A stretch of DNA of 64,000 nt from a virus. A program made the position numbers and the translations under genes. The stretch is taken from IMG/VR virus record IMGVR_UViG_3300027586_000003, positions 41,002-105,001 of that record; one strand, 5' to 3'. The notes under the pieces are model-generated. The model searched no databases. It was not told the DNA's origin and was given only the letters and a program-made list of their open reading frames with translations. This document shows, one piece after another, positions 8,667 through 54,616 of the stretch (positions are counted from its first letter, which is position 1; each line of letters begins with the position of its first letter).

Positions 8667-11600
8667 TTAGTTCATCATTGAGTTGTAGATTGCTTCCAAA
8701 TTGGTCAGGCCGGTAATCCGAGCGACGGGAACGGTTCCGGCGGTCAAAAGTCCCGCACTACTGACAATAAAGCCACCTAAATTTGAGTCGCCGACAACGT
8801 GCAGAGTAGATGTGGGGATTGTGATGCCGATGCCGACTTTGCCGGTGTTAAATATCGCAGCCGGGTTTGTTCCATCCCCGACAACGTAAAGGCGAGCAGG
8901 GATTGTTACTGTCGCTGGAGCATCTGCGCCGATTATTTGGACATTTCCTCTACCGAGATTTAAGCTGGCGGCATCTAAACCAGCAGCAACAACAGCGTTA
9001 TTTGCACTATTTAAGAATTGCCAATAGGGAGAATTAGACACGTTGGCTAATTGCACATTGTGTCCACCAGACTTTTCAAACCTCGCGGGGAATCCGCTTG
9101 AAAAAACGTGGAGCGTATTCGCAGGACTCGTCGTCCCGATGCCGACTTTGCCCGTCCCGGCAGGGGCAATTATCACGTCAATGTTCGCCGCCCCCGTTCC
9201 CGCAGTCTCCGCTGCCAGAGTGAATGAGTTAGCTGTTTGATTTATGGAGAATCGCTGGTAGTTGCTCGCGTTAGTGTAGGCGTAGTAACTGCGAATAACA
9301 CCCGTGTTTTCAATCGTGAAAACCTTTCTGCCGCTGCCTCCTGACGTGGTGAAGTCGAAGTTTTGGTATGCAACTAGATTAAGTGCTGCTGGCCCCGTCA
9401 TGCTGCATCCTGTGCCAGCCCAGTAAAATGTTTTTGCTGCCCCCATCGCAACGTCAATCAGGAACGTCGCGCTCGTATTGTCCGTCGTAAGCACATTGGT
9501 TCCGGTCTGCGGGGAGTAGAATATGAAGCCTGTGTATGGGGCCGATAGCACCATGTAGTTGCTGTATTCCTCAATCGTTCCGCCACCAGAAAACTTCAAG
9601 CCGTAGTTGTCACCTGTCGCAACAGTTAGTGCCTTGCTTGCGGCCATCGCCACCGCATTGGCGAAGGTGAAACTAGGCGCACTCCCCGCCGCCGTGAACG
9701 TAGTAAGCCCCACACTGGAAACCGTCGTGTCCATGTAAGTCGTTGCGCTGCCGTTCGCATCGTTGTAGGTCAGGCGCAGAGCCGATGACGGGCCGAGGTT
9801 GATTTCACAAACCTTGTCGGGAGCGGTGGTGCCGATGCCGACGTTGCCGGAGGAAGTGATTCGCATCTTTTCCGTAACCGTTGCCAGCACGCTCTGTCCT
9901 GCGGTCGTGCTTTGTGTTCCAAAGACTAAAGCTCCGAGACTGTTCATGTATGTGGAGTTCTCCTTAACCCCTCCAATGCTGGCGAATGTGGTGTCCACAG
10001 CACCTTGACCAGCAGTGCTACCTCCAAAAACAATTGTGCCGCCGTTGCCTGCCGCATAAACTCCGTTCGTGGGGTTTTCGCCGACGAACAGATTCCCGAG
10101 CGTTGAACTCTTGGTGCTTCGCGTGTTAATGACACCTTGGACGAGAGTGTCTCCTGTGATGTCCACTGCCCCAACCACCATCAGTCCATAATTCGAGCTT
10201 GCACCTATGGAGGAGAAGTAGCCTGCGACCAAATTGTTGTTTGCTCCTCCTGTCAGGACGCTCCTTATCCCATAAACTGTCCCAGTGTTGTCGGGTGGGG
10301 AGATGGCAATGTGCAGGCTTCCCGCCGAGTTAATCTTCGCCAGCACAGTTCCGCTGCTGTTCTGCACTTCCAGTGCGTTCGCCGTTGCCGAGGCTGCGAG
10401 TTTGATTATTGAACCAATGGTTCCTGCTGCTCCAGCGTTGACCTGCAACTGTGCGCCGGGAGACGCCGTGCCGATGCCGACTTTGCGCGTGCTTCCATCA
10501 AAAAATGCTATCGCGTTTTGTTTACCATCAAAAACAGTCAAGCTTCTGAACCGAGTAGTGCCGCCATTATATCCGGTATAGTTTATGCCACCCGAATTAC
10601 CAGAAGTTGTATCAGCATCTAGCCCATAATCAAAATTTAATTGATTGCGGTTACCTATATATATACCGTATCCTGACTGGTCGGTTACTTTTAATGGAAT
10701 TGGAACAGTGGGGAAACTGCTGGAAATATCCAACTTCGCCCCCGGACTCGTCGTCCCGATGCCGACGTTGCCCGTCGCCGCAGATATTACAAGCCGCCTT
10801 AAAGCTGCCGCCTCATCGTGGATGTAGAATTGGGCGTCGTCAGTTCCGAGCCGGTAATGCTTAGTGCCGCCATTAAAATTCAGTTTCAGATAAGGCCCAC
10901 CGCCGCCTTGCCCGATAGTAAAGATGCCAGACGAAAGGCCATTGGAACCAGAAAATGAGCCATCAGCACCAACCTGAAAGTATGCGTTTCCAACAGAGTC
11001 CTCCACCGCGAATACCGGAGCAACGACTTGGGCGACTGCTGACCTTCGCACCAATAAACCTTTACCATTAAACGAGCCATCTTGAGTTATAAAAACAGAG
11101 GCTTCACTGGCAGCTACTGGTGTGTTAACACTAAGTTTATTTCCCGGACTCGTCGTGCCGATGCCGACGTTTCCTGCATGATACATCTTTGCATTAGCAT
11201 CAACGGAGTAAATGCTGAATGGCAGATTGGTCTGTGTGCCTGCTGTTTGAGAGCCTATGTAGAGGCCATAGGTGTCCGTTATGGTTCCACCGCTACTTAG
11301 GGCACTAATGTGGATTGCACGCCTGTCGGCGGTTGTTCCTCCAACGCTGGTGGAGCGATTTGCGGCGATGTGGAGGCCGGTTTGATTAGTGACTCCGCTA
11401 GATGCTTGGGCCGAAGCATTGACTATTGCTCCTACCAAAGTGGTAACGGCTCCCGCGCCCAAGGCTTGTGCTGCCAAGGAATAGGTTCCGTAACAATTTT
11501 GGAGGGTGCCAGTTCCATAGTGGTAGTTATACATCAACGAGGCATAAACCGCGTTGAGATTTTCACTATTGGTCGCAGGCACAACCGTTTGAATCCACTT

Positions 11601-20231: not shown

Positions 20232-20663
20232 CTACACTGTTCGCGGCCCGAACTTGGCATCCAACTCTTTCAGATACGCCTCCATCTCCGGTGACTGCTC
20301 CCACACCGTCCCGTCATCCGGCACAAGGCGGCGGTCAACATCCTTCGGAAACTGCGTGAAGCTCGCTACGTCATTCGGCGTTGGCAACAATTCGACAGCC
20401 CGCGCCGGGTCATCCATCGGCACCACGGACAGATTGTAGTTTCCGCACAGCCTGATAAGGCTGTCGCAGAACAACTCCGGCTCGTCGGTGATGTCCACGC
20501 TCCGCTCGCTCTCCGGGTCAAAAAAGTCCTGCTTGACGACCATTTCCGTCGCGGCGGTGTCCGTCCAGCGCATCCTGCCGTCCGGCAGAAACTCAATCTC
20601 ACCAGCCCAAATTCTCGCCTGTGTTTCACGCGAAAACTCCTGAATTTGAATGTGACGGCTCAT
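20232..20663 (-). CDS. Acidic hypothetical protein coupled to the kinase gene (possible immunity/partner)
   Basis: ATGA overlap with the kinase stop; D/E-rich 143 aa. Confidence 0.6.
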   Translation of the reverse strand: MSRHIQIQEFSRETQARIWAGEIEFLPDGRMRWTDTAATEMVVKQDFFDPESERSVDITDEPELFCDSLIRLCGNYNLSVVPMDDPARAVELLPTPNDVASFTQFPKDVDRRLVPDDGTVWEQSPEMEAYLKELDAKFGPRTV

Positions 20664-22384
20664 GGTGCTCTCAGTCTAGCAAGGAAATTATCCGCATCTT
20701 TCGTCCCATGCGCCGACTTGCGCATCGCCTTGAAAAAAGTCGGGTTTGCGCCGCCGCTGGCATGAAGCATGGGTTGCAGATTAGCCGCACGCTGTTTCAT
20801 TGTCGAGACTGAACCGGGCAACAATCCATGCGTTGCTCCAAAGGTGTCAAGCCACGTTGCGAATTCTGGAGAATTTACTTTTCTTGAAAGCTCTGAAACT
20901 CTCCGGTCTGCCGCTGCATCCATCTGAACCTCGTGCGCAAAAACCATCGCCGTAGAGACGTTGCCCCCAACAAGCCCGGTGTGCTCGTAGGTGTGGTGGC
21001 TCTCTGGCAACGTCAATCCGTGGTCAATTGGATGAAGCCTTCCAACCTTGTCAACCATCATGTTGCCACTATGTCGGTCAGTGTTTCCAGTGATGTAGTC
21101 AAGCACTGCCAACTCCGCCAACCTAGACTTGTCATTATCCCAAAGTTTCGGCCAAAACTTCTTTGCGCGAACCTCATCCCCGTAAGCGTTTTTGGTAGGC
21201 ACTGAATCAGGATCGAAGTCAATCAACGATTGCAGTGAGCCTTTCTTGCCGTCCACTATCACCATCGCTGTTATGGAATGCTCAATCCCAAGTTGTTTTG
21301 CAATATCGTAGGAGGCAACCTCACGCTTCGCGCCGCTAACTGCACGATCATCAATGTTCGATCTGGCACCCTTACCTTCACCCGATTCCGGCTTGAAGAC
21401 GCCTTTCGTAACGGTTCCGTCGGCTGCGGTAGCCTTCAGAATGAAAGACTGGCTGTAGTTTTGCCTGCCGCCCAACTTGTCCAATTTTCTTGTGGTTGAA
21501 GTTGCAATATCGCCCGCCACTTTCTGCTGTTCGGCGTGAATGTTGGATTGGAAATTTCCGGGTGTGACTGGCGCAATTGGCTGCGCTGCCGGGGCGGCTT
21601 GGGCTACGGGGGCCACGGGGCGCATCGAATTTCGCTCCATGTGCGCTATCACGTCCTGCTGCCACCTTTTAATCCGTGGGGCAGCACCGTTCAGATTCAC
21701 GCCGCGCACAGCAGCCACGTCGTTGCGATAAATCGCCTGATTGATTGCGGCGATTCCAGCCCTTCCGATTGGTGCGTGTGCCTGTGGCCTAATGACTGGC
21801 GCACGCGGTGGCAGATGTTGCGCCGCTGCTTGCCGTGCAATAATCGCCGCTTGGCCTCGCAACGGGCCAGCCGCCGGGGGTTGCACTGCTGCCTGCCGTG
21901 CGATGTCCGCCGCGATTTTAGCGTCACGGACGGCCTGTGCGTTGGCTTCGGCGGCACGGGCGTTGTGTTCGGCCACAATGACCGCCCGGCGGGCGTCCTC
22001 TGGCGACGGAACTGGCAATGGGGCCGGTCGCTGAATCGCCGGGCGTGCGGCCTGCGGCGGTGGAGCCGTGTCCGGTCTGCCGGGGAGCGCACGGCGAGGG
22101 GGCCACTCGGCTGACATCGGATTCGGTTTCTCAACATCCGCCACCCGTTGCAGCCTGCCGCCGACCTTGGCGTAGTGCTTCCTGCCAAACTTGGGTATCT
22201 TCCCAATATCGCCTTGATTACCAGCCCCAGCCCCGACGTGGCACTTCAGGTCGCCTGCGATGAATCCGTCGCCGCACGCCTTACCACCACGCACACGGGC
22301 GTTTGCCAGCGTGCGTGCCGTGCGAACAATCTCGGCGTATGCTTGGTTGAGCATTTTTTGGAAATTAACTAAGCCGCTTGCCAT
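20660..22384 (-). CDS. Tagged protein with C-terminal PI3/PI4-kinase / HipA-like kinase domain
   Basis: GVFKP, KREVASY, GSLQ, DYITGNTDRHSGN and IDHGL motifs; N-terminal LAN...KACGDGFIAGDLKCHVG tag; Ala/Pro linker. Confidence 0.85.
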   Translation of the reverse strand: MASGLVNFQKMLNQAYAEIVRTARTLANARVRGGKACGDGFIAGDLKCHVGAGAGNQGDIGKIPKFGRKHYAKVGGRLQRVADVEKPNPMSAEWPPRRALPGRPDTAPPPQAARPAIQRPAPLPVPSPEDARRAVIVAEHNARAAEANAQAVRDAKIAADIARQAAVQPPAAGPLRGQAAIIARQAAAQHLPPRAPVIRPQAHAPIGRAGIAAINQAIYRNDVAAVRGVNLNGAAPRIKRWQQDVIAHMERNSMRPVAPVAQAAPAAQPIAPVTPGNFQSNIHAEQQKVAGDIATSTTRKLDKLGGRQNYSQSFILKATAADGTVTKGVFKPESGEGKGARSNIDDRAVSGAKREVASYDIAKQLGIEHSITAMVIVDGKKGSLQSLIDFDPDSVPTKNAYGDEVRAKKFWPKLWDNDKSRLAELAVLDYITGNTDRHSGNMMVDKVGRLHPIDHGLTLPESHHTYEHTGLVGGNVSTAMVFAHEVQMDAAADRRVSELSRKVNSPEFATWLDTFGATHGLLPGSVSTMKQRAANLQPMLHASGGANPTFFKAMRKSAHGTKDADNFLARLRAP

Positions 22385-23358
22385 GTCAATAGCGATGCTT
22401 TTTAGTTTGCGGCAACTATGTCACCATGCGACTGACTCTTGCAGCCGCCCATGTTTGCCCCGCGTCTCCGCCCCACAATGCCCACGCAATGCGGCCTGCG
22501 GAGGGAAAGCCATCTTCATTAGGCGTAAAACCTTGCCCCTTTTTATCAACTTCGTGTCGCGCAAAAAACGAGTGCATCCGCTTAACGGTGTCGTCGGAAA
22601 GATTTGATTCGTTGCTAATGTCCCTAGCGCGAGCAACCCCGACCTCGGTTCCTCCTCGGTTGTGTTCTCTGCGCCAAGCCAGACCGCGAGCGGCTTCCTC
22701 AATCATGTCTTTGCTCGGCTTGTTCTGAGATTTCTCAAACTCGGCAGAGTTGTTGAATGACTCGCCGCACGGTTGCCCGCTGTTCGCCAAGGCAACCGGC
22801 CCGTCGCACGCCGCCATCAATTCATCGAAGCTGAACTTGCCACGGTTCCGTAGCTGAACGTCCCGCTCAGTGACGCCGCCGACCAAGTTCTTAACCTGCT
22901 TGGCGAAGTGCAACATCTCGTCGAATCCGCGACTCGCCGCGTCCTTGATTGAGTCGTAGCTGTTGTGGAACATGGCTTTTGGAATCTCGTCCACGACCTC
23001 TAGCAGCGTCGCCCTGAACGTCTTCTCCATCTCTGGAATGGTGAACGTCTTTTGATGCTCGGCCAGCACTGCCTCTGGATTCTGTTCGTAGGCGAACCTC
23101 GCCCCGGCCCGCGTGTTCTTGCTCGCCACGACCATGAAAACCCGCTGCGTGCCGCTGGCGTCCTTTGCCTTGAACGTGACCGCCGCCATTCTGGCTGTCT
23201 CAGGCACGTCCACTCCGAGTTTGTCGCCCTGACCGGCGTGGCACTCTTTGTCCGCTGCTATGAAGCTGTCACCGCACGCCTTACCACCACGCACACGGGC
23301 GTTTGCCAGCGTGCGTGCCGTGCGAACAATCTGGGCGTATGCTTGGTTGAGCATTTTT
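22272..23358 (-). repeat. ~87-bp direct repeat (22272-22358 / 23272-23358) encoding MLNQAYAxIVRTARTLANARVRGGKACG
   Basis: Near-identical nucleotide sequence 1000 bp apart. Confidence 0.9.
22416..23354 (-). CDS. Tagged head-associated protein
   Basis: N-terminus duplicated from the kinase gene; C-terminal ARGLAWRREHNRGGTEVGVARARD...RMHSFFARHE...GRIAWALWGGDAG domain that I recognise from phage head-region proteins. Confidence 0.7.
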   Translation of the reverse strand: MLNQAYAQIVRTARTLANARVRGGKACGDSFIAADKECHAGQGDKLGVDVPETARMAAVTFKAKDASGTQRVFMVVASKNTRAGARFAYEQNPEAVLAEHQKTFTIPEMEKTFRATLLEVVDEIPKAMFHNSYDSIKDAASRGFDEMLHFAKQVKNLVGGVTERDVQLRNRGKFSFDELMAACDGPVALANSGQPCGESFNNSAEFEKSQNKPSKDMIEEAARGLAWRREHNRGGTEVGVARARDISNESNLSDDTVKRMHSFFARHEVDKKGQGFTPNEDGFPSAGRIAWALWGGDAGQTWAAARVSRMVT

Positions 23359-23369
23359 CGGGAAAGTAA

Positions 23370-26300
23370 TTAGGATTGCTGCGATGTAAACGCGAGTTCC
23401 GGGTGTTCGTCCGGCTCGTCAGCGCGATTCTTCATCGCCTCCGATTCTTCGAGAATCTTGGCACGAACCTGCTCCGGCGTGACCTCAAAGTTTTTTTCCA
23501 GCACCCAATCACGGACGGACGCCTTGACCGCCCCGATTTGAGTCCCCTTGAGCTTGGGAGCCGCAGCCATAATGTCCTTGCCGGTGAACACGGCTGAGAG
23601 CCGCTTTTCCATCTCCTCTTTCTTGCCGAACTGCTCAACCAAGCGGTCGGCACGGCCCATCTTTTTCTCGAAATCCTCCGCCTTGAACAGCGCACCACGG
23701 GACGCTTCATCGCTGCGCATGACCTCTCGCAGCAGCGGCCAGTTCTTCTCCTGCCGGAACCGCAGCGCGAGCCTGTCGCTCACCGCGTCGAAGTTGTGGC
23801 CGACCATGTGGTGTTCCACCGCCAGCGCAATCGCCTCTTTCTGCTCGTTGCTGAACTTCAACCGTGCGGCTGCCTTCTCCAAGAGCGGGATGCCAGCGGC
23901 CTCGTGCGCGATGTAGGTCGGCTGGCCGTCCTTCTCACCACGGGTGGTGGCCTTGCCGATGTCGTGAAGCAGAATGGCGACGTTCGTTGTCGCATCATTG
24001 GTGTTGCTGGCCTTGACCGCCTCCAAGACGTGCTCATACACGCCGCCCTCCGGGTGGTGCTTCGGGTTGTGCGGCAGTCCACGCATCGCCGCCACCTCTG
24101 GCAGCGTGTGCTCCAGCAGCCCGGCCTCGCTCATCACCGACACGAACTTCGCCAGCGACTTGCCGTTGTCCGCCGCCTTGAACACCTCGTCACGGATGCG
24201 CTCGCCGGAAATCGTGGCGACTGACGGAGCCAGTTTCTTCATGGCGTCCATCGTCTTCGCTTCAATGTCGAAGCCCAGCCGACCGGCGAACCTCGCCGCC
24301 CGAATCATCCGCAACGGGTCTTCAGTGAACCTTGCCTCCGGGTCGCCGACGGCGCGAATCACCTTGGCTTCTATGTCGGCTTTGCCGTTCTGCGGGTCAA
24401 CCAAGTTGCCTGCGGCGTCCATCGCCATCGCATTGATGGTAAAGTCACGACGCTTCGAGTCTTCATCGAAGCTGCCCGCCGCCGTGACAGAATCCGGCCT
24501 GCGCTGGTCGGTGTAAGCCCCGTCCGTGCGGAACTGTGCGACCTCGAATGTGTGGCCCTCATGTGGAATCGCCACAATGCCAAAGTCTGCGCTGTTGCCG
24601 ATTTCGTGCGAGCGGAAAGCGGACTGCAACTTCGCTGCGGGCAGCGGCGTCGCAATGTCGAAGTCCTTCGGCGTCTTGCCCATCACCATGTCTCTGACCG
24701 CGCCGCCGACAATGAGCGGATTCGTGCCGGGGAACTGCCGTTCAATCTCACCGAGGATGGACACGGCAGCCTTGGCCTGCGGGTTCGACTCAGCCATCTC
24801 TTTCAATCCGCCGCCTTCCTTGGGTGCGAACTTGCCGTCGGCGGCGCGAGGGTGAAGCGACTCCTCAAACTCGCCGGAGTTACTGATTTTGTTGCTCGAC
24901 TTGTTGAACCGTTTAGAGAGCGGGATGACGTTGCCTTGGTCGTCGCGGGTGATGGGGTCGGCGGATTTGATTTGGGAGGGGCTGAAGACGACAGTGACAT
25001 TGCTCGTGGCTGTCTGCCCCCCTTCGACTACGTTGCTTACCTTGAGAGAATCATGCCCGCGAGTTTGGGCAATGCCTGCGATGTCTCCTATGTCGCTGCG
25101 AGTATTGCCGTAGGTTACATCATACCACTGGGAGCCTTTTGCATCGACTGACAGCGGGTTATTAGTTTTAAGAAACACCTCCATTTGTGGCAGGTCGTTC
25201 ACCGGAGAGTCTGCAAAGTATATCCCGTCACCTACGTCGTTTGAAAATTCAGTGAACTTCTTATCTGTCCCGTGATAAGCCTTGGTGCCATACCCCGCCG
25301 CCTTCGCCGCCTCATCCACCATCTTCTGAGCCGTGAACGTGTCGCCCGACGCCACCGCGCCTGCGTAGGCCGCGTCCTGCTCAGGTGTGACCCCCACATG
25401 GCAAGTGTCGCCGGACTCAATAAAGCTCTCGCCGCAGGGCTGGCCGCTGTTGCTGATTTTGTTGCTCGCCCTGTTGAACCGTTTAGAAAGTGGGATGACG
25501 TTGCCAGCGGAGTCGAACACAACAGGTGAAGACGACTTTATCCTAGCGGAGTCGAAAACAGCTATCTCCCTGCTGCGAGTTTTCACTTCACCAAGCCCAC
25601 CAGCCGTCATATATCCACTGACAGAATTGAATCCTTTTCTTATTAAGTCATCAATGTCTCTGCTAGATATGTTACTTGAAGACCTTATCCCGTCTTTAAC
25701 TGTTGCCGTTCGCCCCAAGTTGACAAAGTATTTTACAGGCTTCATCATACCAACACCAATGTCTGTGAACTTCAAAAGCCTGTTTGAATCTTCAACCGTC
25801 GGTGTTAGATAGACTGCTTTCCTATACGTTGTTTTTCCAACGCCTTCAGATGGCTTGTAGTCGTCCGGCAACTTGCCAGCGTCAACCGCCTTGACCCAAG
25901 CATCGGCCCCGTGCTTGGCCGCAAAGTCACCCCAAACCTCATTCTCAATCGAAAGCGGTGTCCGTGGATACTCGGTTTGAAAAACCTCAATCGGCGACCC
26001 ATTTCTGGTTCGATGGTAGGCAACCGTGTAGCCAGCCGCCTTCGCCGCATCGTCCACCATCTTCTGAGCGGTCACAGTGTCACCCGCCGCCACCGCACCC
26101 GTATAGGCTGCGTCCTGCTCCGGCGTAACTCCGACGTGGCAAGTGTCTCCGGCTTCGATGAATGAATCACCGCACGGCTGGCCGCTGTTGCTGATGTTCC
26201 TGTCGCCCTTACTCCATGTGCCACGGTTGAATGCCGATTTAATCTGTTCAGGACGCAATGCGATGTAACTTGTGCCTTTGGACTCGCCCTTGTTATCGTA

Positions 26301-29300
26301 AATAACACCGTCGTAACCAATGCTGTTGAGCCACTTCACGTTCACGAGCCATCGCCCCTTGCTGCCATAGGTCGAGTTCTCGTTCAGTTCATCAATCCAT
26401 TCTTTGTGTTTGGATTTAGAGATTACCCCTTCGTTGAACATCTTGTTGTGAACATTGTGCCAATCAAAATCATCCAGCCTTAGTGGGTTTTTTATGCTGA
26501 TATAAACAGGCTTTATGTTCGCGCCTTCGGCGTAGGCTGGGTTTTCGTATCCTTGAAAGAATCGGCTTCTAAAGTTGTAATTTATGATGTCGTTTGCCTG
26601 CTGTGCCGTTCCGAAATGCGAGCCTAAACCTTCCTTTACCCTTCCAAACTCCGTGAAACCAGCATTGGTTCCGTGATAGACCACAAGCGGCTTCCCGTCC
26701 TTATCCACAACCTTCGAGTCTCCGAACCATTCCTTGAACTCAGGCGATTCTGTGCTGGCGGGCCTGAGTGCTGGCGCGGTCTGGCCTTCACCTTCACCAA
26801 CATGGCACGTTTTGTCTGCGGAGATTGACGACTCACCGCACGGCTTGCCGGTGTTTCTGTTCAGCATCGGTTCGTCACGATTCGCCAGCTTCTTCGGCGC
26901 AATGCCCATCTCCTTTGTGAACTTGTTTGCCGCCTTCAACACATCTTTGATGTCCATGTCAATTCGGCGCGTCTTGATTTTTGTGTCGCCGAACTTTCCG
27001 TCCTTCGCATCCAGCCCAATCTTCGCCGCCCAGCGGTGGTGCCCATCAATCACATAGCCATCACGCGACACGAAGATGGAGTTCTCATCAAGGCCGACCG
27101 CCTTCTGACCCTCCGGCGACATCATAAACGCCACGTTGCTGCCCTTCAACTCGCTCTGCGACGCTTTCAATGAAGAAGCAGGTTGGTCAATGTCTTCGGT
27201 CTTGACGCCCTTCTTTAAGAGGCTCTGAACGAACGCTTCGCCGACATTAACCTCGCCCGCTTTATCCTTCGGGAAATTTTTCTCATCGTCCACGGTTGAA
27301 CCTTTTACCGGAAACCCAGCCAGTTGCGGCATCTCGGAGCGTGGAATCGGCTTACCGTCGTCGCCCTTCAATGACTCGCCGCAGAACAGGTTGGTTCCCG
27401 GCACGGACACCTTGCACAGATTCAGGTTTACCTTCTCGCCGCTCTTCTTAGCTTCGTTAGCAAACTTGTGGATTTCCTCAATTGCGGTGTTGACCTCTTT
27501 CACGCTTTTCAGAACCACGTCACCACCGCCTTTAAGCGCAGTGACCGCCGCCTTGCCAGCCTCCTCTTCCGCTGTGGCCTTCACCGGCTTCTCCTCAACC
27601 GCCTTGACCGCAGCTTCCGGTGCCTTCGGCGATTCAGCCGCCTTGGCCGCTTCCGGCTGTGCGCCAAGATACTCGCCTATCTTGTCGGAAAGTTTGCGCG
27701 ACGCGCCGATGGCTCGCTGTTGCTGCTGCAAGGCGTGAAGGACTTTCAGTTCCTTCATCTTGTCTGTGTCAGGAAGAGCCTTCGCTGTCTCGACGTGCGC
27801 CTTCAACTCGCCAAGCAATTTGCCAACCTCTTCGATGCTTTTCGGCTTCACCATCTTGATTTGGCCGGACGCTGCCATTGTGGACATGGGCTTGGCACCC
27901 GCAGAATCCGTCTTGCCCGCCTTATCCGCCTTCGGAGTCGCCGCCACCGCCGCCGTGACCGGCGCATCCTTTGTCGGGGCTGTCTCGCCAATGTGGCACT
28001 CCATTTCCTCGCCGATGAATGACTTGCCGCACGCCTTGTTTTCCAGTGTGCCTTCGCTGTTCTCCTTGACCAACTTCGCAATCTGTTCGTGCATCTCCTC
28101 TGCGGACACACCACGCGGGAATATAAAGCTCACGCGCCCGCCCGGAGCGGCATTCTGCAAGCGAATCTCCGCCATCTTGCCAAGGTCGAAAATAGCGAGT
28201 TCCTTCAACTGCTTGGCCTGCTCCATTGCGCCGCCGACCGCCTTGTGAATCTGAACCACGTCCAAGAAAATCTTGCCGCTCACCTTGTCAAACCAGCCGC
28301 CCATGTGCGCCAGAGGGTCTTTCTTCAACGTCTCTGCCGCCCGGTCGAAGAAACCCTTCACCGCCTTGACGGAAAGCTGCTTGGCGTTCAACACCACCTC
28401 TAAATGCTTGTAGGCACTGACTGCGAAGCCGGACTTTGGAGACTTGTTCTGAGCCGGTTCGTAGGTGAAGCCGCCTGACTTCCTGAGCTTCGTCACCAAC
28501 TGCTTTCCCTCTGCGTGTGAGAAGTCACCTTCACGGCACGTCTTGTCATCGGAAATGAAGGACGCACCGCATGGCTTGTTCGACAGCGCATCGTCTTCAA
28601 TCCACGGTGCGTCGTTGTCCAGTTCTTCGCTGACCGGCTGCGTCGTGTCCTCCATCTTCAACCACGCCTTGAACTCGTCAACCGTCATCGGCGTCACGTC
28701 GCCGACCCGCTCTGCACCGCGACCGTCGCTGAATCCCTTATGATATGTGCTGAGTGCGGTGAACAGGTTCGGGAACGCCAGCATGACCTTGTGTTCGTCA
28801 AAGTCACCCGTGTTGGCATCCACTTGGTCAATCACAAACACCTTGCTGGAATCGGGTGCGTCGCCGAGATACACGTCAACCTCATCTCCGTCGGCTCCCT
28901 CAGTGTCAATGACGTAGCCATACGAAGCTGGCATCACCGTCGCCCAAGTTTCCCCTTCACTGTTCGTCCCACTACGGACGCCGCCCTTGGGATTCTCGAC
29001 GCTGATTGACAGGCCGTTCCACGTCGCCTCGCCCTTCAGGTAGTTGCCGGACTCTTTCTGCGCATCCGTCGGAGCCGCCGCCACCGTCACCGGCTGGCCT
29101 AGCACGGTCGCTGCCACTATGTCGGTGCGGTTGTTGAACTTGCTGTTGTTGCTATTGAACCGCTGGGAAAGCGGAATCACACTGCCAGTATCATCACGAA
29201 CAACCGCATCACTTCGCTTGAATTTTGAAGTGTCAAAGATTGCAATATGCCTTCCGGTCGCTCCCGGCCCGTCGTGTATCGCCGCCGAGAATCCAGCCTT

Positions 29301-30008
29301 CAAAAGTCCAGCGGCTACGCTGCCATACCGACGCTCCAGCGAGATAAGCGGCAAAGCGTCAGTCACAGTTCTTCCGAGAAGTGTTCCGACGGCACCCGCA
29401 ACTTCCGGCGTTATTGGCTTTGTCATGTCAACCACACGACCGCCAACGTAACCGGACGCAACTCGGCCAGAGGCAAGTTGCGCTGGATTCCAAGAGCCTT
29501 CCAAGGTCGCATAAATCGCGGGGCCAAGCACCGCTCCTTCCCTTGACTTTGAAATGTCGAAGTCTGCAAAATTAGCATTGGTTCTGTGAACAGCCGGGCC
29601 AACCGTATATCCAGCCGCCGCCGCCGCTTCATCCACCATCTTCTGAGCCGTGGCCGTGTCACCAGACTCCACCGCCTTCGCATACGCCGCGTCCTTCTCC
29701 GGCGTCACCCCAACATGGCAAGTGTCGCCATCCTCAACAAATCCAGCCCCGCACGGCTGGCCGTTCGTAAGCCGCTCAAACGAGTTTGGAACGCTAACCG
29801 CAGGATTAGCCCATTCACTCACCCTGTTCGCCCACGCGCCAGCCTGACGCGCAGGCGGGCCATTCTGGATGAACTCTTTGAACGCAGCACCTCCGGGAAG
29901 GACGGATTGCAATACTTGGCGGGTGACTGCCGCCGGAAACCGGGAGCGGTTCAGGAACGCAACCACCTCACGAACCCGCGTAGCGTAAATAACGGAGGGG
30001 TTGTGCAT
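23370..30008 (-). CDS. Polyvalent protein (2212 aa): 4 ART-PolyVal-like domains, InPase domain, ParB/Srx-like domain, unknown domain, C-terminal CCA-adding enzyme with HD domain
   Basis: FKEWFGDSKVVDKDGKPLVVYHGT...IKNPL...GYDGVIY...QIKS (ART-PolyVal); GNYLKG..W.GLSISVENPKG..R.G...YGY...GADGDEVDVYLG (InPase); DGYVIDGHHRWAA (ParB-like); VGGAVRD/DFDIAT/RRDFTINAMA/EDPLRMIRAARF/HHPEG/LLHDIGK (class II nucleotidyltransferase + HD). Confidence 0.9.
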   Translation of the reverse strand: MHNPSVIYATRVREVVAFLNRSRFPAAVTRQVLQSVLPGGAAFKEFIQNGPPARQAGAWANRVSEWANPAVSVPNSFERLTNGQPCGAGFVEDGDTCHVGVTPEKDAAYAKAVESGDTATAQKMVDEAAAAAGYTVGPAVHRTNANFADFDISKSREGAVLGPAIYATLEGSWNPAQLASGRVASGYVGGRVVDMTKPITPEVAGAVGTLLGRTVTDALPLISLERRYGSVAAGLLKAGFSAAIHDGPGATGRHIAIFDTSKFKRSDAVVRDDTGSVIPLSQRFNSNNSKFNNRTDIVAATVLGQPVTVAAAPTDAQKESGNYLKGEATWNGLSISVENPKGGVRSGTNSEGETWATVMPASYGYVIDTEGADGDEVDVYLGDAPDSSKVFVIDQVDANTGDFDEHKVMLAFPNLFTALSTYHKGFSDGRGAERVGDVTPMTVDEFKAWLKMEDTTQPVSEELDNDAPWIEDDALSNKPCGASFISDDKTCREGDFSHAEGKQLVTKLRKSGGFTYEPAQNKSPKSGFAVSAYKHLEVVLNAKQLSVKAVKGFFDRAAETLKKDPLAHMGGWFDKVSGKIFLDVVQIHKAVGGAMEQAKQLKELAIFDLGKMAEIRLQNAAPGGRVSFIFPRGVSAEEMHEQIAKLVKENSEGTLENKACGKSFIGEEMECHIGETAPTKDAPVTAAVAATPKADKAGKTDSAGAKPMSTMAASGQIKMVKPKSIEEVGKLLGELKAHVETAKALPDTDKMKELKVLHALQQQQRAIGASRKLSDKIGEYLGAQPEAAKAAESPKAPEAAVKAVEEKPVKATAEEEAGKAAVTALKGGGDVVLKSVKEVNTAIEEIHKFANEAKKSGEKVNLNLCKVSVPGTNLFCGESLKGDDGKPIPRSEMPQLAGFPVKGSTVDDEKNFPKDKAGEVNVGEAFVQSLLKKGVKTEDIDQPASSLKASQSELKGSNVAFMMSPEGQKAVGLDENSIFVSRDGYVIDGHHRWAAKIGLDAKDGKFGDTKIKTRRIDMDIKDVLKAANKFTKEMGIAPKKLANRDEPMLNRNTGKPCGESSISADKTCHVGEGEGQTAPALRPASTESPEFKEWFGDSKVVDKDGKPLVVYHGTNAGFTEFGRVKEGLGSHFGTAQQANDIINYNFRSRFFQGYENPAYAEGANIKPVYISIKNPLRLDDFDWHNVHNKMFNEGVISKSKHKEWIDELNENSTYGSKGRWLVNVKWLNSIGYDGVIYDNKGESKGTSYIALRPEQIKSAFNRGTWSKGDRNISNSGQPCGDSFIEAGDTCHVGVTPEQDAAYTGAVAAGDTVTAQKMVDDAAKAAGYTVAYHRTRNGSPIEVFQTEYPRTPLSIENEVWGDFAAKHGADAWVKAVDAGKLPDDYKPSEGVGKTTYRKAVYLTPTVEDSNRLLKFTDIGVGMMKPVKYFVNLGRTATVKDGIRSSSNISSRDIDDLIRKGFNSVSGYMTAGGLGEVKTRSREIAVFDSARIKSSSPVVFDSAGNVIPLSKRFNRASNKISNSGQPCGESFIESGDTCHVGVTPEQDAAYAGAVASGDTFTAQKMVDEAAKAAGYGTKAYHGTDKKFTEFSNDVGDGIYFADSPVNDLPQMEVFLKTNNPLSVDAKGSQWYDVTYGNTRSDIGDIAGIAQTRGHDSLKVSNVVEGGQTATSNVTVVFSPSQIKSADPITRDDQGNVIPLSKRFNKSSNKISNSGEFEESLHPRAADGKFAPKEGGGLKEMAESNPQAKAAVSILGEIERQFPGTNPLIVGGAVRDMVMGKTPKDFDIATPLPAAKLQSAFRSHEIGNSADFGIVAIPHEGHTFEVAQFRTDGAYTDQRRPDSVTAAGSFDEDSKRRDFTINAMAMDAAGNLVDPQNGKADIEAKVIRAVGDPEARFTEDPLRMIRAARFAGRLGFDIEAKTMDAMKKLAPSVATISGERIRDEVFKAADNGKSLAKFVSVMSEAGLLEHTLPEVAAMRGLPHNPKHHPEGGVYEHVLEAVKASNTNDATTNVAILLHDIGKATTRGEKDGQPTYIAHEAAGIPLLEKAAARLKFSNEQKEAIALAVEHHMVGHNFDAVSDRLALRFRQEKNWPLLREVMRSDEASRGALFKAEDFEKKMGRADRLVEQFGKKEEMEKRLSAVFTGKDIMAAAPKLKGTQIGAVKASVRDWVLEKNFEVTPEQVRAKILEESEAMKNRADEPDEHPELAFTSQQS

Positions 30009-30455
30009 TTATAATCCGTCTTGGTCACGAAATGTTCGTTTGCGAGCATCAATTGTCGGCGTGAAAACTTGAGTTGTCTCAGCGTCTAGCACGCTCGGCA
30101 AGTCCACCGCAAAATTACAACGTGCCACGTCACGCAGAATCGCCATTGCCTCCCGCGCCGAATTCGCCCGGTGTCCGTTCGGGTCAATCAGCTTGCCAGC
30201 GCACCGCTTCTCCACCTCAACCACCAACAGGTCAAGTGTTGCCCCCAGAAGCTTCTCAGGAATCGTGTCATCCGGGCCAAGCCGATTTCGCTGGCACGCC
30301 GCAATGTAGCCCCGCACCAAATCTACAACCTGCAACGTCACCGCCGCTACCGGGTCGGCCTGCCCAGCCGCCAATGCCGCCGAACGGAAGGCCGCTAGTT
30401 CCGGGCCGCTGATGCGGGTCTTTAACGAGTTTTCAGAAACAAGAATCCAAGCCAT
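30009..30455 (-). CDS. Head-tail adaptor (Mu gp36 / DUF1320-like)
   Basis: VDLVRGYI...IPEKL...DL...A..ILRDVA pattern; position after the major capsid gene. Confidence 0.75.
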   Translation of the reverse strand: MAWILVSENSLKTRISGPELAAFRSAALAAGQADPVAAVTLQVVDLVRGYIAACQRNRLGPDDTIPEKLLGATLDLLVVEVEKRCAGKLIDPNGHRANSAREAMAILRDVARCNFAVDLPSVLDAETTQVFTPTIDARKRTFRDQDGL

Positions 30456-30911: not shown

Positions 30912-30992
30912 GGTTACGAAACCTCTTAGAATCAGCAACGTGGTCAAGAGGAAACGGTTGAACTTGTGCCGCGTTGACCGTTTCTAAAAAGC

Positions 30993-31027
30993 AAAAACCC
31001 CGGCTCCTTTCGGAAACCGGGGCTTTT
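30993..31027 (-). terminator. Rho-independent terminator after the major capsid gene
   Basis: Minus strand CCCCGGTTTCC-GAAA-GGAGCCGGGG-TTTTT. Confidence 0.85.
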
Positions 31028-31041
31028 GTTGAGATTTTCGC

Positions 31042-32477: not shown

Positions 32478-33062
32478 TTAAATGGAGTTTTTGATGGACA
32501 GTTCCGTGCGTGCCTTATGGAAGGCGTCTCGGTGAGCCATACCCTTGTTGGAAAGCTGAATCTCGGTTGTCCGGTTGCGAATCCACGCGCTGTCAGAGGC
32601 GGGCATGGTGGCAGCGGAATCGCCGACGATGGATGCCGGGAGAGCGGAACGGTTGCGATTATGCAACGGGGCGGACACGGTGGCGGTGTCAGCCGAAGGA
32701 GCAGCGGGAGCCGACTTCAGGCCGGTGAGGAACTTATACGTCGCATCACGGTTGGAAATCAGAGACTCCTTTACGGAGGCGGCGTCGCGGATGACCGACT
32801 TGAACGCTTCCACGTCGCGGTTGGCAAGCTCTTCGAGGAGGACAACCGTGCGGTTCTGGAGCGACACAATCCGCTCATTAGAAGCGGTCGTCTCAGCGTT
32901 TGCGACAGCGACTTCATCGCGTGCCTTGAGGATGGCATCGTCCATCTGCTCCTTGTAGCCGACCATATCCTTTTGGAAGGATGAGTTAGCCAAAGAGATT
33001 TCCTCGTCAGTGGCCGAATTCGCCAGACCGAGCAGACTGATAAGTTGTTCTTTGTGATTCAT
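32478..33062 (-). CDS. Scaffolding protein
   Basis: LLGL..SATDEEI motif of Mu-type scaffold regions; helical; C-terminal capsid-binding-like helix (HRDAFHKAR). Confidence 0.75.
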   Translation of the reverse strand: MNHKEQLISLLGLANSATDEEISLANSSFQKDMVGYKEQMDDAILKARDEVAVANAETTASNERIVSLQNRTVVLLEELANRDVEAFKSVIRDAASVKESLISNRDATYKFLTGLKSAPAAPSADTATVSAPLHNRNRSALPASIVGDSAATMPASDSAWIRNRTTEIQLSNKGMAHRDAFHKARTELSIKNSI

Positions 33063-33130: not shown

Positions 33131-34351
33131 TCACCGTGAAATAGGAGTTAGACCCTTTAGGTTTGGCTCATTAGTCAAAGCTACTGAATCTAGCACCATT
33201 GGACGCAACTGGCCGTTGTCAAGTGTTTCGCAATTGCGCTTGAGCCATACTGGCGAGACGAGCCTATACCGCCCGCCGTTGACCGCCTTCTCGCCTACGT
33301 CTGTCCATCGCACCTGTCCCCACATACCGTCGTTACGCTTGGCAAGGTTTTCAATCCAGCCGCCCGCCTCCGATGGCTTATCGCCTGACTGAGAGAAGTG
33401 GTCAAAGTCCAGCAATGCTCCGGTGAAGTTTTTGTCGCTGGCCTTGCGGGCGGCAAAGTTCGCCACCATAGCGTCCACCGATTTTGCATCAATCAGTTGC
33501 ACCACGCCGGTTGGATGAGGATGGCTGCCGAACGGTGCAAGGTGAATCCAGCCGTCGGATGGAACACTGAATCGGTTGTTCAGCTTGCTCACGGCTTCAA
33601 CGCAGATGCCAAGCCGGACTTCGGATGTGTTTCCGTAAATGGTTTTACTCCGCAGCGGATACATCACCTTCACGCCTGACGAGTCTATCCTTTCCTCGTT
33701 GCTTTGAAGCGCGACTGGGATTCTCGTCCCCTTCGCGTAGGTGTCCACCCGGTATCCCTGCTTGTATTTTTCGCCTTCGTTAATCGTTCGATGCGTCTCG
33801 TCGGTTGTGACAGAGCTTAGAAGCGGGAGTTTCAAAGAGCGGCGGATGAAATCAGGAGTCGGTATCCCGTGGTCGTCTGTCGGAGCACTCACGAACTTGC
33901 CATCACTCATGTATTGCCAAACGGGTTGCTTGGTTTCCGGGTTCCACGTTCTGACGGATAAATTAGCCCGGTCAAAATCGGAAATGTCATGCGAACCTTC
34001 ACCGCCGACATGGCATTGATGACCGTCAGGGATGTGCGAGTCGCCGCACGGCTGCCCGTTCGCCAAAGCCTGCTCACCGCTCAGGCTGTGCATCGGAGCC
34101 ACCGTGTCGCCCTGTTCCTGTTTCGTAGCGTCTTCCGTAGCAGCGGAATCAATCTCCATCCGGGGAACGGTCTTCTGCCGCTCCCGATACTCACGCTGCT
34201 TCGCTGACGCCGTGATGCGGGCCAAACGGTCAGGGGTCAGGTTGTGCTGCCCAACGGCTACCTTCTTGGCGGTGACGTGCTGAGAGACACGGGCACGCGA
34301 CGGCGCGGCGGTCGTCTTGGTGCTGGCACGGTTGAAGAGTTTGTAGAACAT
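33131..34351 (-). CDS. Prohead protease (Mu gpI-like) with ~250-aa N-terminal extension carrying a tag
   Basis: WIHLAPFG...LLDFDH...AGGWI..L..R.DGMWGQVRWT..G...V..GRYRLVSP...VALTNEPNL at the C-terminus. Confidence 0.88.
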   Translation of the reverse strand: MFYKLFNRASTKTTAAPSRARVSQHVTAKKVAVGQHNLTPDRLARITASAKQREYRERQKTVPRMEIDSAATEDATKQEQGDTVAPMHSLSGEQALANGQPCGDSHIPDGHQCHVGGEGSHDISDFDRANLSVRTWNPETKQPVWQYMSDGKFVSAPTDDHGIPTPDFIRRSLKLPLLSSVTTDETHRTINEGEKYKQGYRVDTYAKGTRIPVALQSNEERIDSSGVKVMYPLRSKTIYGNTSEVRLGICVEAVSKLNNRFSVPSDGWIHLAPFGSHPHPTGVVQLIDAKSVDAMVANFAARKASDKNFTGALLDFDHFSQSGDKPSEAGGWIENLAKRNDGMWGQVRWTDVGEKAVNGGRYRLVSPVWLKRNCETLDNGQLRPMVLDSVALTNEPNLKGLTPISR

Positions 34352-34354
34352 GGG

Positions 34355-36640
34355 CTACTCGTGCTTTTTTTGCCACTTCTCGCCAGCAATGCGTCGGCGT
34401 TCAATCATCTTACGAAATTGTGGTGAGCGAACACGGGCGTCCATCGCTGCCCGCTCTTCAGCGGTTCCAACTTGAACTGGCAGATGTTCGACTTTCACCA
34501 CCTTATGCAACTTCTCATTGCTCCGCTCAAACGGCCTGCCGAGATAATGCTTCTCCACATCTTCCTTAGTGCCGTTTATTTCTGTGGCGAAACTGTCGCC
34601 GCTGTCAAAGTGAACCTTCACGGCCCGGCGTTTGAAAACAGCGTCGTCCACGGAGGCTGGCGTTGCGGATTCTCCGACACGGCACGTCAGACCGGCTGCG
34701 ATGTGCGAGTCGCCGCAGGGCTGTCCACCGGCACCAGCGTTCACAATCGTTTCGAGCGGTTCTGTGACGGAGCGGTTCTCGTGCTTTTCTTGCCATTTCT
34801 TACCAGCAATGCGTCGGCGTTCAATCATCTTGCGAAATTGTGGCGAGCGAACGCGGGCGTCCATCGCGGCCTGTTCAGCCGCAGTTCCAACTTGAACTGC
34901 CGATGGGCCGGGACTCGCTGTTGGCGGAGCCGCAACGGGCGCAATGTCACGCGCCTTCTTGCCCTGTTCGTAAAACTGCCGCATCCGCCGAAACGCAATC
35001 TCTGTCATTTTGTCTGATTCAATCTCGCCTCGCTCTGTCGGCTCGCCTGTAACGGCGCGGTCGTAGCGGCGTCTCTCGTCCACCGACAAGAACCGCTTGA
35101 ATGATGAGGCGTTGGCGGGAAGCGCAGCCTCAACCGGGTCGGTATCAATGTCATCGCCGCCAAGCGAAAGATGATGAACACCATCGCCATTACGCCGCGT
35201 CTCCCAAGATTTCCTCACACCCTCGCTCGTTCCCGCATTCGCTATCTTTTCCCGGTCTTTGTTCAGCACTTTGAAAACTTCTCCAACCCCTTCGAGGGAC
35301 TCAACGTGCAGGAAAAGTTCCGGCAGCTTTCTAGCCTCATTTGGCTCGGCGCGGCCAGCGGCCAATACGTGTCCAGCCCCATACTTTTTGGCAGTGAATG
35401 TCTCCCTGCCAGACCGCTCAACCAATGCCTTTTGAGTCTTGCTAAGGCGGCACGTCAGACCGGCTGCGATGTGCGAGTCGCCGCACGGCTGTCCGCCAGC
35501 ACCCGCATTCACCATCGCCTCCAGCGCATCATGGTAGCGGTTAGCGTAACCCGGACGGTCACGCTCAACCATGTGGTCAATCGTCTCCATCAGGTTGTCG
35601 GCATACACGTCGTCGCGCTTGCCCTGCGGCTTCCACTGGCCCATCCGCACCTTGCCAGTTTCAACCATATAAGTGTCGTTCGCCATGAGGCGCACCTTCA
35701 CGATGCCGTGACCGAGCTTGCCGCCGTTGACTTTGAACTGAACGCCGCCCCTCTGGTAGCCGCCGTCCGGTGTCGAGCCAGCGGGCATGATGGTAAGATT
35801 TCTGGTGCCCCACGCCATTATAGCACTGCGGTCGGTGGCTTTGATTTGGTCAATAATCGTGGTGGCTATGTAGCGTTCCTCGTGCTTTTGATCGGTATCG
35901 GAATTAGGGGTTGTCTTCGGCTCGCTCTGATACGTTGGACGGGAACCGTCCCCGACACGGCATTGATGCCCATCGGGAATGTGCGAGTCGCCGCAGGGTT
36001 GAGAATTTGAATAGCGGCGAGGAGGTGGCAAGTCGGCGGATAGGTATTTCCCATATTTAGGGTGAGTTTTCTCCGAAATGATAACAGCACGCTTGTCGCC
36101 GTCACGTAATCGGTCAATACGCGACGATGAAGCATGAATCTCAACAATCTGGCCGTTAAACTTAACGTATTTCGCCCCATCCCCGAGAATTACCGCATCT
36201 ATGCGAGCAATCTGTTTTGACGACTCTTGTGGAGCCGCGCCTTGACCGACACGGCATTGATGCCCGTCGGGGATGTGGCTGTCGCCGCAGGGCTGTGAGT
36301 TGAACAGGCTGCCGACGCTGTTGCTAACCGAGTGCGAGTCCTTCCACATCTTCCGCTCCTTGATTTCCTCACCAACCTTGGCGAGTCCTTCAAGCGAGTT
36401 CGGGTCATCCTTCGTGACGAGTGCGCTCTCCGAAAGTGACGCGAGACGCGAGTTTCGCATTGCGCTCATTGCCGCCCGGTAGCCGCCGTTCTCCATCTCT
36501 TCATCGTCGTCACCTTCATAGTCGTTGACGATCTTGGTGTCATAGTCGTTGACAATCTTGGTGTCGGCGGCTTGCTCGTCGTCGGCCTCACACTTGGCGC
36601 AGCCGCACCCGCCGTTAAACAGTTTGTAGAACTGTGTCAT
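34355..36640 (-). CDS. Modular head-region polyprotein (761 aa) with 4 C-x10-C tags and small cargo domains
   Basis: NSQPCGDSHIPDGHQCRVG x2, NAGAGGQPCGDSHIAAGLTCR x2, NAGTSEGVRKSWETRR; internal ~40-aa duplication (34360-34480 / 34780-34900). Confidence 0.8.
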   Translation of the reverse strand: MTQFYKLFNGGCGCAKCEADDEQAADTKIVNDYDTKIVNDYEGDDDEEMENGGYRAAMSAMRNSRLASLSESALVTKDDPNSLEGLAKVGEEIKERKMWKDSHSVSNSVGSLFNSQPCGDSHIPDGHQCRVGQGAAPQESSKQIARIDAVILGDGAKYVKFNGQIVEIHASSSRIDRLRDGDKRAVIISEKTHPKYGKYLSADLPPPRRYSNSQPCGDSHIPDGHQCRVGDGSRPTYQSEPKTTPNSDTDQKHEERYIATTIIDQIKATDRSAIMAWGTRNLTIMPAGSTPDGGYQRGGVQFKVNGGKLGHGIVKVRLMANDTYMVETGKVRMGQWKPQGKRDDVYADNLMETIDHMVERDRPGYANRYHDALEAMVNAGAGGQPCGDSHIAAGLTCRLSKTQKALVERSGRETFTAKKYGAGHVLAAGRAEPNEARKLPELFLHVESLEGVGEVFKVLNKDREKIANAGTSEGVRKSWETRRNGDGVHHLSLGGDDIDTDPVEAALPANASSFKRFLSVDERRRYDRAVTGEPTERGEIESDKMTEIAFRRMRQFYEQGKKARDIAPVAAPPTASPGPSAVQVGTAAEQAAMDARVRSPQFRKMIERRRIAGKKWQEKHENRSVTEPLETIVNAGAGGQPCGDSHIAAGLTCRVGESATPASVDDAVFKRRAVKVHFDSGDSFATEINGTKEDVEKHYLGRPFERSNEKLHKVVKVEHLPVQVGTAEERAAMDARVRSPQFRKMIERRRIAGEKWQKKHE

Positions 36641-40987: not shown

Positions 40988-41016
40988 AGTATGCAGCCAC
41001 AGACTTCTCACGTCAA
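40988..41016 (-). promoter_or_regulatory. sigma70-like promoter
   Basis: TTGACG-N17-CATACT. Confidence 0.6.
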
Positions 41017-54167: not shown

Positions 54168-54217
54168 AGGATGGATTGATACTCGACGCGGTTCAACTCA
54201 GTCAACCGCAAAAGGAA

Positions 54218-54616
54218 TGGACACGGTGGGAGTCGAACCCACGTCCTACAAATGTTCAAACGTCACATCCACACGCTTCCCTTGACTGCCCGCCGTCGCA
54301 GCCCGCCAAGGATGGCTGTAGCGACGTTTTTGTGGGCTTGGATACGTCAGAGTGCCGCCCTTGCACCCCGCTCCGTCCTGCTATCTTCAGCGCATCGCCT
54401 TAGCAGGCGTCCAGCGTGCGCTGTCGGGGCTGATTAAGCCGCGAGAGCTTCCTCGACGAAGCCGAACCGTGCGAGAATCGCATCGGCCTCGGCCAGTGAG
54501 GGAGCCATGTCTAGTGCGTTAGCATTTGACTGGTGATTGGAGATTTAACGAGGCCAACAATCATCCTCGGCGTGTCGCGCCGTCCTAGTTTTCGTAGTCA
54601 AAACCATGACGTGCCC
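54218..54616 (-). ncRNA. ssrA: tmRNA (SsrA)
   Basis: 5' GGGCACG-TCATGGTTTTGAC; 3' GTGGG-TTCGACT-CCCAC-CGTGTCC-A with G3.U pair; internal tag frame 54523-54434 ANALDMAPSLAEADAILARFGFVEEALAA*. Confidence 0.93.

Follow-up and report, generated by a model that had tools for sequence, protein, structure and literature searches.

The 64,000-nucleotide stretch analyzed here (the window) comprises positions 41,002 to 105,001 of the IMG/VR virus record IMGVR_UViG_3300027586_000003, a linear record of 105 kb with an estimated completeness of 77%. Window positions 23370–30008 on the minus strand, which also carries all other window features given below, hold an open reading frame (ORF; P0001) that stays open in a single frame for all 2,212 codons. 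It encodes a polyprotein of at least eight modules, comprising transferases, a phosphatase, a nucleotidyltransferase, a ParB-like module and one module of unknown function. Judged from its sequence, this protein is most likely (a probability of roughly 60%) a virion-packaged polyvalent protein of the phage, a late effector chain of the head operon that would be loaded into the procapsid and delivered with the DNA.

Packaging is suggested by the position of the gene in the operon, by its location in a slot that appears to hold cargo, by fusions of the same modules to proteases and portals elsewhere, and by motifs that the polyprotein has in common with the protease of the operon. In the proposed mechanism, an N-terminal 13-residue motif ending in L-x-N, common to three other proteins that carry the boundary motif described below, would act like a capsid-targeting propeptide. 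Seven [L/I]-x-N boundaries, six followed by a cysteine (Cys) loop and one by an HPR motif, would be the cut sites of the Mu-like prohead protease, which probably divides the chain into its modules. Cleavage at these hydrophobic-x-Asn boundaries is suggested by the enrichment of such sites in the scaffold and by analogy with phages T4 and SPN3US. After ejection, ADP-ribosyltransferase (ART) modules would modify host targets with NAD+, the CCA-adding/HD enzyme would restore damaged or missing 3′ ends of tRNA (or tmRNA), and the pyrophosphatase may clear pyrophosphate (PPi). The context suggests an anti-defence function for the whole.

Domain organization and relation to polyvalent proteins

From the N-terminus, the polyprotein contains an ART-like module (A1), a family I pyrophosphatase (InPase), a domain that we call GGFT, a ParB/sulfiredoxin-like module, three further ART-like modules (A2, A3 and A4) and a CCA-adding enzyme with an HD domain. 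This order and the module positions closely match the eight domains proposed in the original prediction, which was made from the sequence without database searches. Its ATG directly follows the stop codon of the upstream gene (TAAATG). Residues 1–82 (29763–30008) match no family; they share 60–66% identity with the N-terminal ends of P0002–P0004, the database proteins most closely related to it, and this conservation from the first residue onward indicates that the start codon is correct. An Ala/Lys/Glu-rich, low-complexity stretch (residues 675–819; 27552–27986) is kept only in close relatives. None of the GenBank phage records searched by tblastn covers more than 20% of the protein, and no paralogues of its modules were found elsewhere in the genome.

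Polyvalent proteins, as surveyed in 2017 by Iyer, Burroughs, Anand, de Souza and Aravind (PMC5512222), occur in phages and conjugative elements and combine from two to fifteen disparate biochemical domains in one polypeptide. They represent a predicted and barely tested route by which phages could deliver ready-made enzymes into the cell. Membership of the polyprotein in this class, also proposed originally, is well supported. It joins many unrelated enzymatic domains in one chain, among them the hallmark ART-PolyVal (in several copies) and InPase families and a ParB-like domain, its gene lies in a late, virion-related context, and its modules are reshuffled between relatives. InPase domains have been described as fused to portal proteins (PMC5512222).

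The polyprotein differs from the usual members of the class in several respects. Pfam scans of the ORF found no portal domain, zincin (MPTase) or LPDs, and no MuF domain, in agreement with the original prediction. It ends in a full CCA-adding/HD enzyme, its modules are delimited by a Cys-loop motif, and its ParB-like domain lacks a match to the Pfam ParB families, ddrB-ParB included. The text of the survey contains none of the words "CCA", "cysteine" or "linker", and it gives Pol-beta nucleotidyltransferases for conjugative elements only (PMC5512222).

Boundary motifs

The repeated motifs at the module boundaries are the most distinctive feature of the polyprotein, and the original prediction does not mention them. 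Six copies of the Cys loop (hereafter the tag), with the pattern [L/I]-x-N, one to four residues, [P/A]-C-G-x-S-F-I-x5-C-[H/R]-x-G, are placed exactly between modules. They occupy residues 86–100 (after L-T-N; 29709–29753), 480–494 (after L-S-N; 28527–28571), 660–674 (after L-E-N; 27987–28031), 1057–1071 (after M-L-N-R-N; 26796–26840), 1279–1293 (after I-S-N; 26130–26174) and 1525–1539 (after I-S-N; 25392–25436). At the seventh boundary (residues ~1708–1730; 24819–24887), I-S-N is followed by EFEESLHPRAADGKF, a motif of the HPRxxxGKF type. Similar HPR motifs stand ahead of modules in small GGFT proteins and in other polyvalent proteins. Among 20 distinct tag copies from six proteins, both Cys residues are invariant, the Gly at +1, Ser at +3 and Ile at +5 are nearly so, and the second Cys is followed by either His or Arg.

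The tag also follows a short N-terminal peptide in three other proteins of the phage, with 312 residues (22416–23354, immediately downstream of the polyprotein gene), 574 residues (20660–22384) and 1,097 residues (47407–50700, 17 kb away), and it lies inside the prohead protease ORF (33131–34351), at residues ~101–116, ahead of the Mu-like_Pro domain (residues 269–404). The polyprotein and the same three proteins have a 13-residue motif in common at their N-termini, which in the polyprotein reads Y-A-x-R-V-R-x-V-V-x-F-L-N (residues 8–20; 29949–29987). The generalized pattern, Y-[AT]-x-[IR]-V-[RN]-x-[AV]-[RV]-x-[LF]-[AL]-N, occurs only four times in the six-frame ORFs of the genome, each time at the N-terminus of one of these four cargo proteins; the pattern was derived from them, so that the evidence consists of their common position and spacing alone. 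A homologue search with the N-terminal 60 residues of the 312-residue protein returned that protein alone.

The scaffold (32478–33062) has Leu, Ile, Val or Met at position −2 of 10 of its 12 Asn residues (p<0.0005 by shuffling), as would be expected for a protein that is shredded by the protease. The putative portal (761 residues; 34355–36640) has these residues at −2 of 12 of its 26 Asn (p=0.0005). Both patterns are compatible with an Asn-directed prohead protease. A prediction of the complex of the major capsid protein (MCP), the scaffold and residues 1–100 of the polyprotein scored 0.00, which speaks neither for nor against binding.

Two other roles were considered for the Cys loop. Self-cleavage of the intein or Hedgehog type was set aside, as the Asn and the Cys are two to five residues apart and the protein has no Hint domain, and a zinc knuckle is doubtful, with only two Cys invariant and the next residue being His or Arg.

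The arrangement resembles the internal proteins and Alt of T4 and the ejection proteins of SPN3US and phiKZ in that diverse counter-defence or takeover proteins have nothing in common but a short N-terminal signal, for which the 13-mer is the candidate here. T4 has a capsid-targeting sequence, and the ejection proteins of SPN3US are cut by the prohead protease at A-x-E; such cargo is loaded into the prohead, trimmed at a short motif of the hydrophobic-x-acid type and ejected with the DNA (PMC3012670, PMC10052503). In contrast to these phages, the candidate P1 residue is Asn instead of Glu, the protease is Mu-like and not of the T4 gp21 type, and the cargo consists mostly of one polyprotein with internal motif repeats.

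Head-operon position and proposed cargo slot

The polyprotein gene follows a series that runs from the protease (Mu-like_Pro) through the scaffold, the MCP, a hairpin, a 132-residue gene and a gp36-like gene. The gp36-like product (148 residues; 30009–30455) resembles Mu gp36 with a Pfam E-value of 0.0044, which falls short of the cut-off, and its gene lies next to the MCP gene in relatives. The hairpin, a strong terminator-like structure of 16 pairs with a T-run (30992–31028), directly follows the MCP gene, so that the cargo genes beyond it would be expressed at a lower level than the capsid protein.

For comparison, 36 IMG/VR loci with related MCPs (44–70% identity) were fetched. Where enough downstream sequence is available, homologues of genes g207, g240 and g348 follow the gp36-like gene at a distance of 0.4–2 kb. 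In this phage, 10 kb lie there instead, with the genes for the polyprotein, the 312- and 574-residue tagged proteins and a 143-residue protein. In two loci (L063 and L081), different long ORFs that bear an InPase stand right after the gp36-like gene; their presence at the same position points to a recurrent cargo slot. The original prediction placed the polyprotein between head adaptor and neck genes. An insertion that separates the gp36-like gene from the conserved genes downstream is borne out, the names of the flanks less so: the gp36 match is below threshold, and the supposed neck genes match no family and receive no name from PHROGs. The MCP lineage was also found in 80 loci (L085–L164) from metagenome-assembled genomes of Verrucomicrobiota, Lentisphaerae and Kiritimatiellia, which suggests a host of the PVC group.

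Probable packaging and processing

Several observations weigh against packaging followed by cleavage at the boundaries. There is no enrichment of [LIVM]-x-N across the full polyprotein (24 of 96 Asn, p=0.11), and the boundary Asn may have no role beyond that of a tag residue. We know of no Asn-specific prohead protease. In the MCP lineage, 36 loci from IMG/VR and 80 from genomes gave a single tag (in L063, and none in the 80 genome loci), with otherwise only chance-looking matches to the tag, the 13-mer or the HPR motif, and tags and 13-mer are absent from database proteins of similar size. This rarity implies that capsids of this type do not generally use them as a signal for packaging. The polyprotein also lacks the MuF, portal and MPTase domains that usually tie polyvalent proteins to the virion, and two of its ART-like modules (A1 and A3) are without the conserved Asp of the family.

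The lack of an overall enrichment of [LIVM]-x-N would also fit a chain that is packaged and left uncut, as a giant internal or ejection protein in which the Cys loops are structural knuckles (held by metal or disulfide) or contacts between modules, and in which the InPase works beside the CCA-adding enzyme, as originally proposed. N4 vRNAP is packaged unprocessed (PMC5512222), and the invariant Cys and near-invariant Gly, Ser and Ile of the tag suggest that the tag folds and is more than a site of cleavage. We nevertheless consider an uncut chain quite unlikely, given that three proteins with a single domain, which need no joint between modules, have the loop after a short N-terminal peptide, that the boundaries always carry the hydrophobic-x-Asn sequence so strongly enriched in the scaffold, and that passage through the tail would involve an undivided chain of 240 kDa.

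Packaging with subsequent cleavage remains preferred, and the repeated motif at the module boundaries makes the polyprotein a clean, testable case. More speculatively, the 13-mer, the [L/I]-x-N sites and the Cys-loop or HPR motifs could together form an undescribed system of cargo loading and processing. An Asn-specific Mu-like protease would then dice the 240-kDa polyprotein within the procapsid into at least seven tagged effectors, including a virion-delivered enzyme for tRNA 3′-end repair that would pre-empt defences directed at tRNA tails. We regard this extension as tentative and rather doubtful.

Pyrophosphatase and CCA-adding enzyme

The InPase (residues 315–451; 28656–29066) matches Pfam family PF18823 with an E-value of 7.9e-48 (162 bits). 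Its acidic metal-binding signature, DGDEVDV at residues 373–379, fits D-[SGDN]-D-[PE]-[LIVMF]-D-[LIVMGAC], the PROSITE pattern of family I pyrophosphatases. Together, the Pfam match and the acidic motif confirm the original call of an InPase at this place.

By its motifs and domain order, the C-terminus is predicted to be a complete, Cca-like class II CCA-adding enzyme with an HD domain, as had been recognized from the sequence before. The head and neck (residues 1766–1974; 24087–24713) consist of a PolyA_pol head (residues 1766–1885; PF01743) and a PolyA_pol_RNAbd region (residues 1912–1974; PF12627), and they are followed by the HD phosphohydrolase domain (residues 1980–2072; 23793–24071), which matches PF01966 over residues 2000–2072 (5.9e-6) and carries the H...HD motif. 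Head motifs A, B and D are intact (GGAVRD...DFD, RRDFTINA and EDPLRMIRAARF, respectively). The C-terminal 500 residues align with bacterial CCA-adding enzymes of known structure (1.6e-46 for PDB 6ibp and 1e-44 for 1miv), and the match to phrog_2244, a group of phage tRNA nucleotidyltransferases, has an E-value of 2.1e-79. The head motifs A–D, the RNA-binding neck and the HD domain follow in the same order as in bacterial Cca and in the stand-alone phrog_2244 enzymes. Unlike bacterial Cca, the enzyme forms the C-terminal end of a fusion with an effector chain of 1,700 residues, and it remains under the equivalog cut-offs of NCBIfam; the top matches there are all CCA families, with PcnB only somewhat lower, and a preference for CCA addition over A-adding, CC-adding or poly(A) polymerase activity is tentative.

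A complete enzyme for tRNA CCA addition and repair among candidate injected proteins is relevant to the defences that cleave tRNA tails (PMC12851939), and phage CCA enzymes have been discussed as repair factors (PMC7824862). The module might serve to repair tRNA 3′ ends attacked by host defences, or it might mature the tmRNA of the phage itself. In the tmRNA gene (54215–54616; Rfam RF00023, 98.2 bits), the discriminator base is followed by TTC and not by CCA. The 105-kb record has no tRNA genes. The original prediction also suggested that the InPase could pull the PPi-releasing CCA reaction forward, a general idea that has been voiced for InPase domains (PMC5512222). Cleavage at the boundary motifs would part the InPase from the CCA module, and a coupling of the two thereby loses force.

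A retrieval of the nearest CCA relatives from IMG/VR and JGI metagenomes gave 117 proteins, all of them stand-alone, with 340–557 residues and at most 50% identity, and only five other long CCA-bearing proteins were found. These stand-alone relatives, together with a tmRNA gene that does not encode its CCA and would create a need for CCA addition within the cell, and with the missing MuF, portal and MPTase domains, would also suit a late cytoplasmic enzyme fusion that is never packaged. Such a fusion would act late in infection within the cell that makes it, where it would maintain tRNA and tmRNA 3′ ends, remove PPi and ADP-ribosylate host proteins, and its place in the operon would reflect timing only. 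This explanation appears unlikely to us, although worth keeping in view, as it leaves aside the ART-PolyVal and InPase hallmarks of virion-delivered polyvalent proteins, the location of the gene in a slot where relatives carry other polyvalent ORFs, the fusion of the same modules to prohead proteases elsewhere, and the motifs common to the protease ORF and other head-region proteins.

ADP-ribosyltransferase modules

Two of the four ART-like modules match ART-PolyVal (PF18760) above the gathering cut-off of 31.2 bits. A2 (residues 1102–1262; 26223–26705) scores 75.1 bits (1.2e-20) and has the motifs YHGT (1111–1114) and GYDG (1231–1234). A4 (residues 1545–1708; 24885–25376), with YHGT (1578–1581), GIYFAD and GHDS (1651–1654), scores 41.7 bits; when residues 1538–1712 are scanned alone, the match covers residues 1575–1684 with an E-value of 2.5e-10. 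A1 (residues 103–288; 29145–29702) and A3 (residues 1299–1517; 25458–26114), which contains an insertion, show no Pfam match even at E<5. All four modules are matched by a custom hidden Markov model for which only ART-PolyVal-type domains from outside the polyprotein were used (A1 in two pieces with 1e-16 and 5e-9, A2 with 5e-20, A3 with 4.9e-23 and A4 with 1e-46), and the protein-atlas neighbours of A1 are ART-PolyVal clusters (score 0.92).

The conserved His is retained in A1 (VHRT, 140–143) and A3 (YHRT). The near-invariant Asp of the family (GyDG) is present in A2 and A4, and is replaced by Ser in A1 and by Asn in A3. From this column, A2 and A4 look catalytically canonical, and A1 and A3 look degenerate or changed; the latter two are, by the custom model, divergent ART-PolyVal paralogues and may be inactive or altered in activity. 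The proposal of four ART-like segments is thus secure for A2 and A4, and holds for A1 and A3 through the custom model (for A1 also the atlas) with the Asp replaced. The same split applies to the catalytic residues expected of the enzymatic domains: the motifs are intact in the InPase, two ARTs, the CCA head and the HD domain, and the conserved Asp is gone in A1 and A3.

Relatives and module exchange

P0002–P0004 share with the polyprotein the N-terminus, the InPase-GGFT-ParB block and a CCA module of 92% identity, and the middle part is swapped. In P0002 and P0003, a 2H domain similar to Acb1 takes the place of the ARTs. The blocks of similarity end at residues 82, ~313–331, 657, 1043 and 1708, at or near boundaries, and DNA repeats of 63–170 nucleotides are found at the boundary tags. 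On the strength of these DNA-level repeats and of the swap points in relatives, the boundary motifs probably double as joints for recombination.

Three proteins from public metagenomes, P0002, P0003 and P0020, likewise combine a CCA/HD enzyme with ART and/or Acb1-like 2H domains in a single long phage protein. Compared with these three, the polyprotein has four ART-like modules and no 2H domain, and its head-operon position and Cys-loop boundaries are documented here. The presence of Acb1-like 2H domains beside the same CCA module fits a counter-defence toolkit.

The exchange of modules between relatives would also fit a prophage-borne, polymorphic-toxin-like effector acting on competing bacteria or mobile elements, and not in takeover of the phage's own host; the ART-PolyVal family falls into the Tox-ART-HYD2 clade in common with polymorphic toxins (PMC5512222). 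Such an effector is nevertheless highly improbable: no secretion-system, immunity-gene or toxin-delivery domains were found in the ORF or its neighbours, and the gene lies among those for virion morphogenesis, in an operon of a phage record of 105 kb.

GGFT domain

The GGFT domain (residues 495–655; 28044–28526), named after its GGFT...GGW...LD...FDL motifs, is a common phage module of unknown function. The unnamed domain noticed at this place in the original prediction is real: a search of 1.84 billion representatives returned 1,228 relatives at E≤1e-3, many of them small single-domain proteins. None of the 46 members tested matches Pfam, PDB searches with single sequences or profiles returned nothing significant, and no close relatives were found in IMG/VR. 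The predicted structure is confident, with a predicted local distance difference test (pLDDT) score of 92.7. Comparison of this model with solved structures returned nothing from the PDB with Foldseek, and the best Z-score of VIA over 48,161 chains was 4.3, none reaching 5; the lack of a fold match for a predicted model does not prove a new fold. In BFVD, the model matches 23 predicted proteins of phages, among them fusions with Zeta-toxin and with XkdF domains. Widespread and confidently modelled, with no solved relative and no Pfam family, GGFT is a good target for structural and functional study.

ParB/sulfiredoxin-like module

The ParB/sulfiredoxin-like module (residues 820–1050; 26859–27551) has no match to a Pfam ParB family (ddrB-ParB included) and no significant PDB sequence match, alone or as a profile. 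It was modelled from an alignment of seven homologues (pLDDT 82). Essentially all of the top ~20 Foldseek matches of the model are ParB-N, sulfiredoxin or Noc structures (best E-value 0.018, probability 0.99), and VIA gives Z-scores of 5–6.4 for the ParB-like fold over residues 932–1041, which include a DGHHR motif at residues 988–992. The model thus has a predicted ParB-N/sulfiredoxin fold with a DGHHR-type motif, at modest scores, in keeping with the original assignment.

The N-terminal subdomain of this module has an invariant C-x10-C (LCKVSVPGTNLFC) in the module alignment; the spacing equals that of the boundary Cys loops, and the sequence is unrelated. Among the tagged neighbours, the 312-residue protein has a second, truncated tag at residues ~190–200 (LAN-SGQPCGESF, with no second Cys), ahead of a C-terminal domain that matches phrog_2859. 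The 574-residue protein has a PI3/PI4-kinase-like region of the SCO1664 family at residues 316–467, after a long Pro/Ala-rich stretch.

Outside the polyprotein, a homologue of the ParB-like module with 62% identity is fused to a Peptidase_S78_2 (XkdF) prohead protease (locus L010, positions 9455–10939, plus strand; also in L011). In four further loci (L005–L008), the module is a stand-alone protein of 352–365 residues with a Cys-rich N-terminus.

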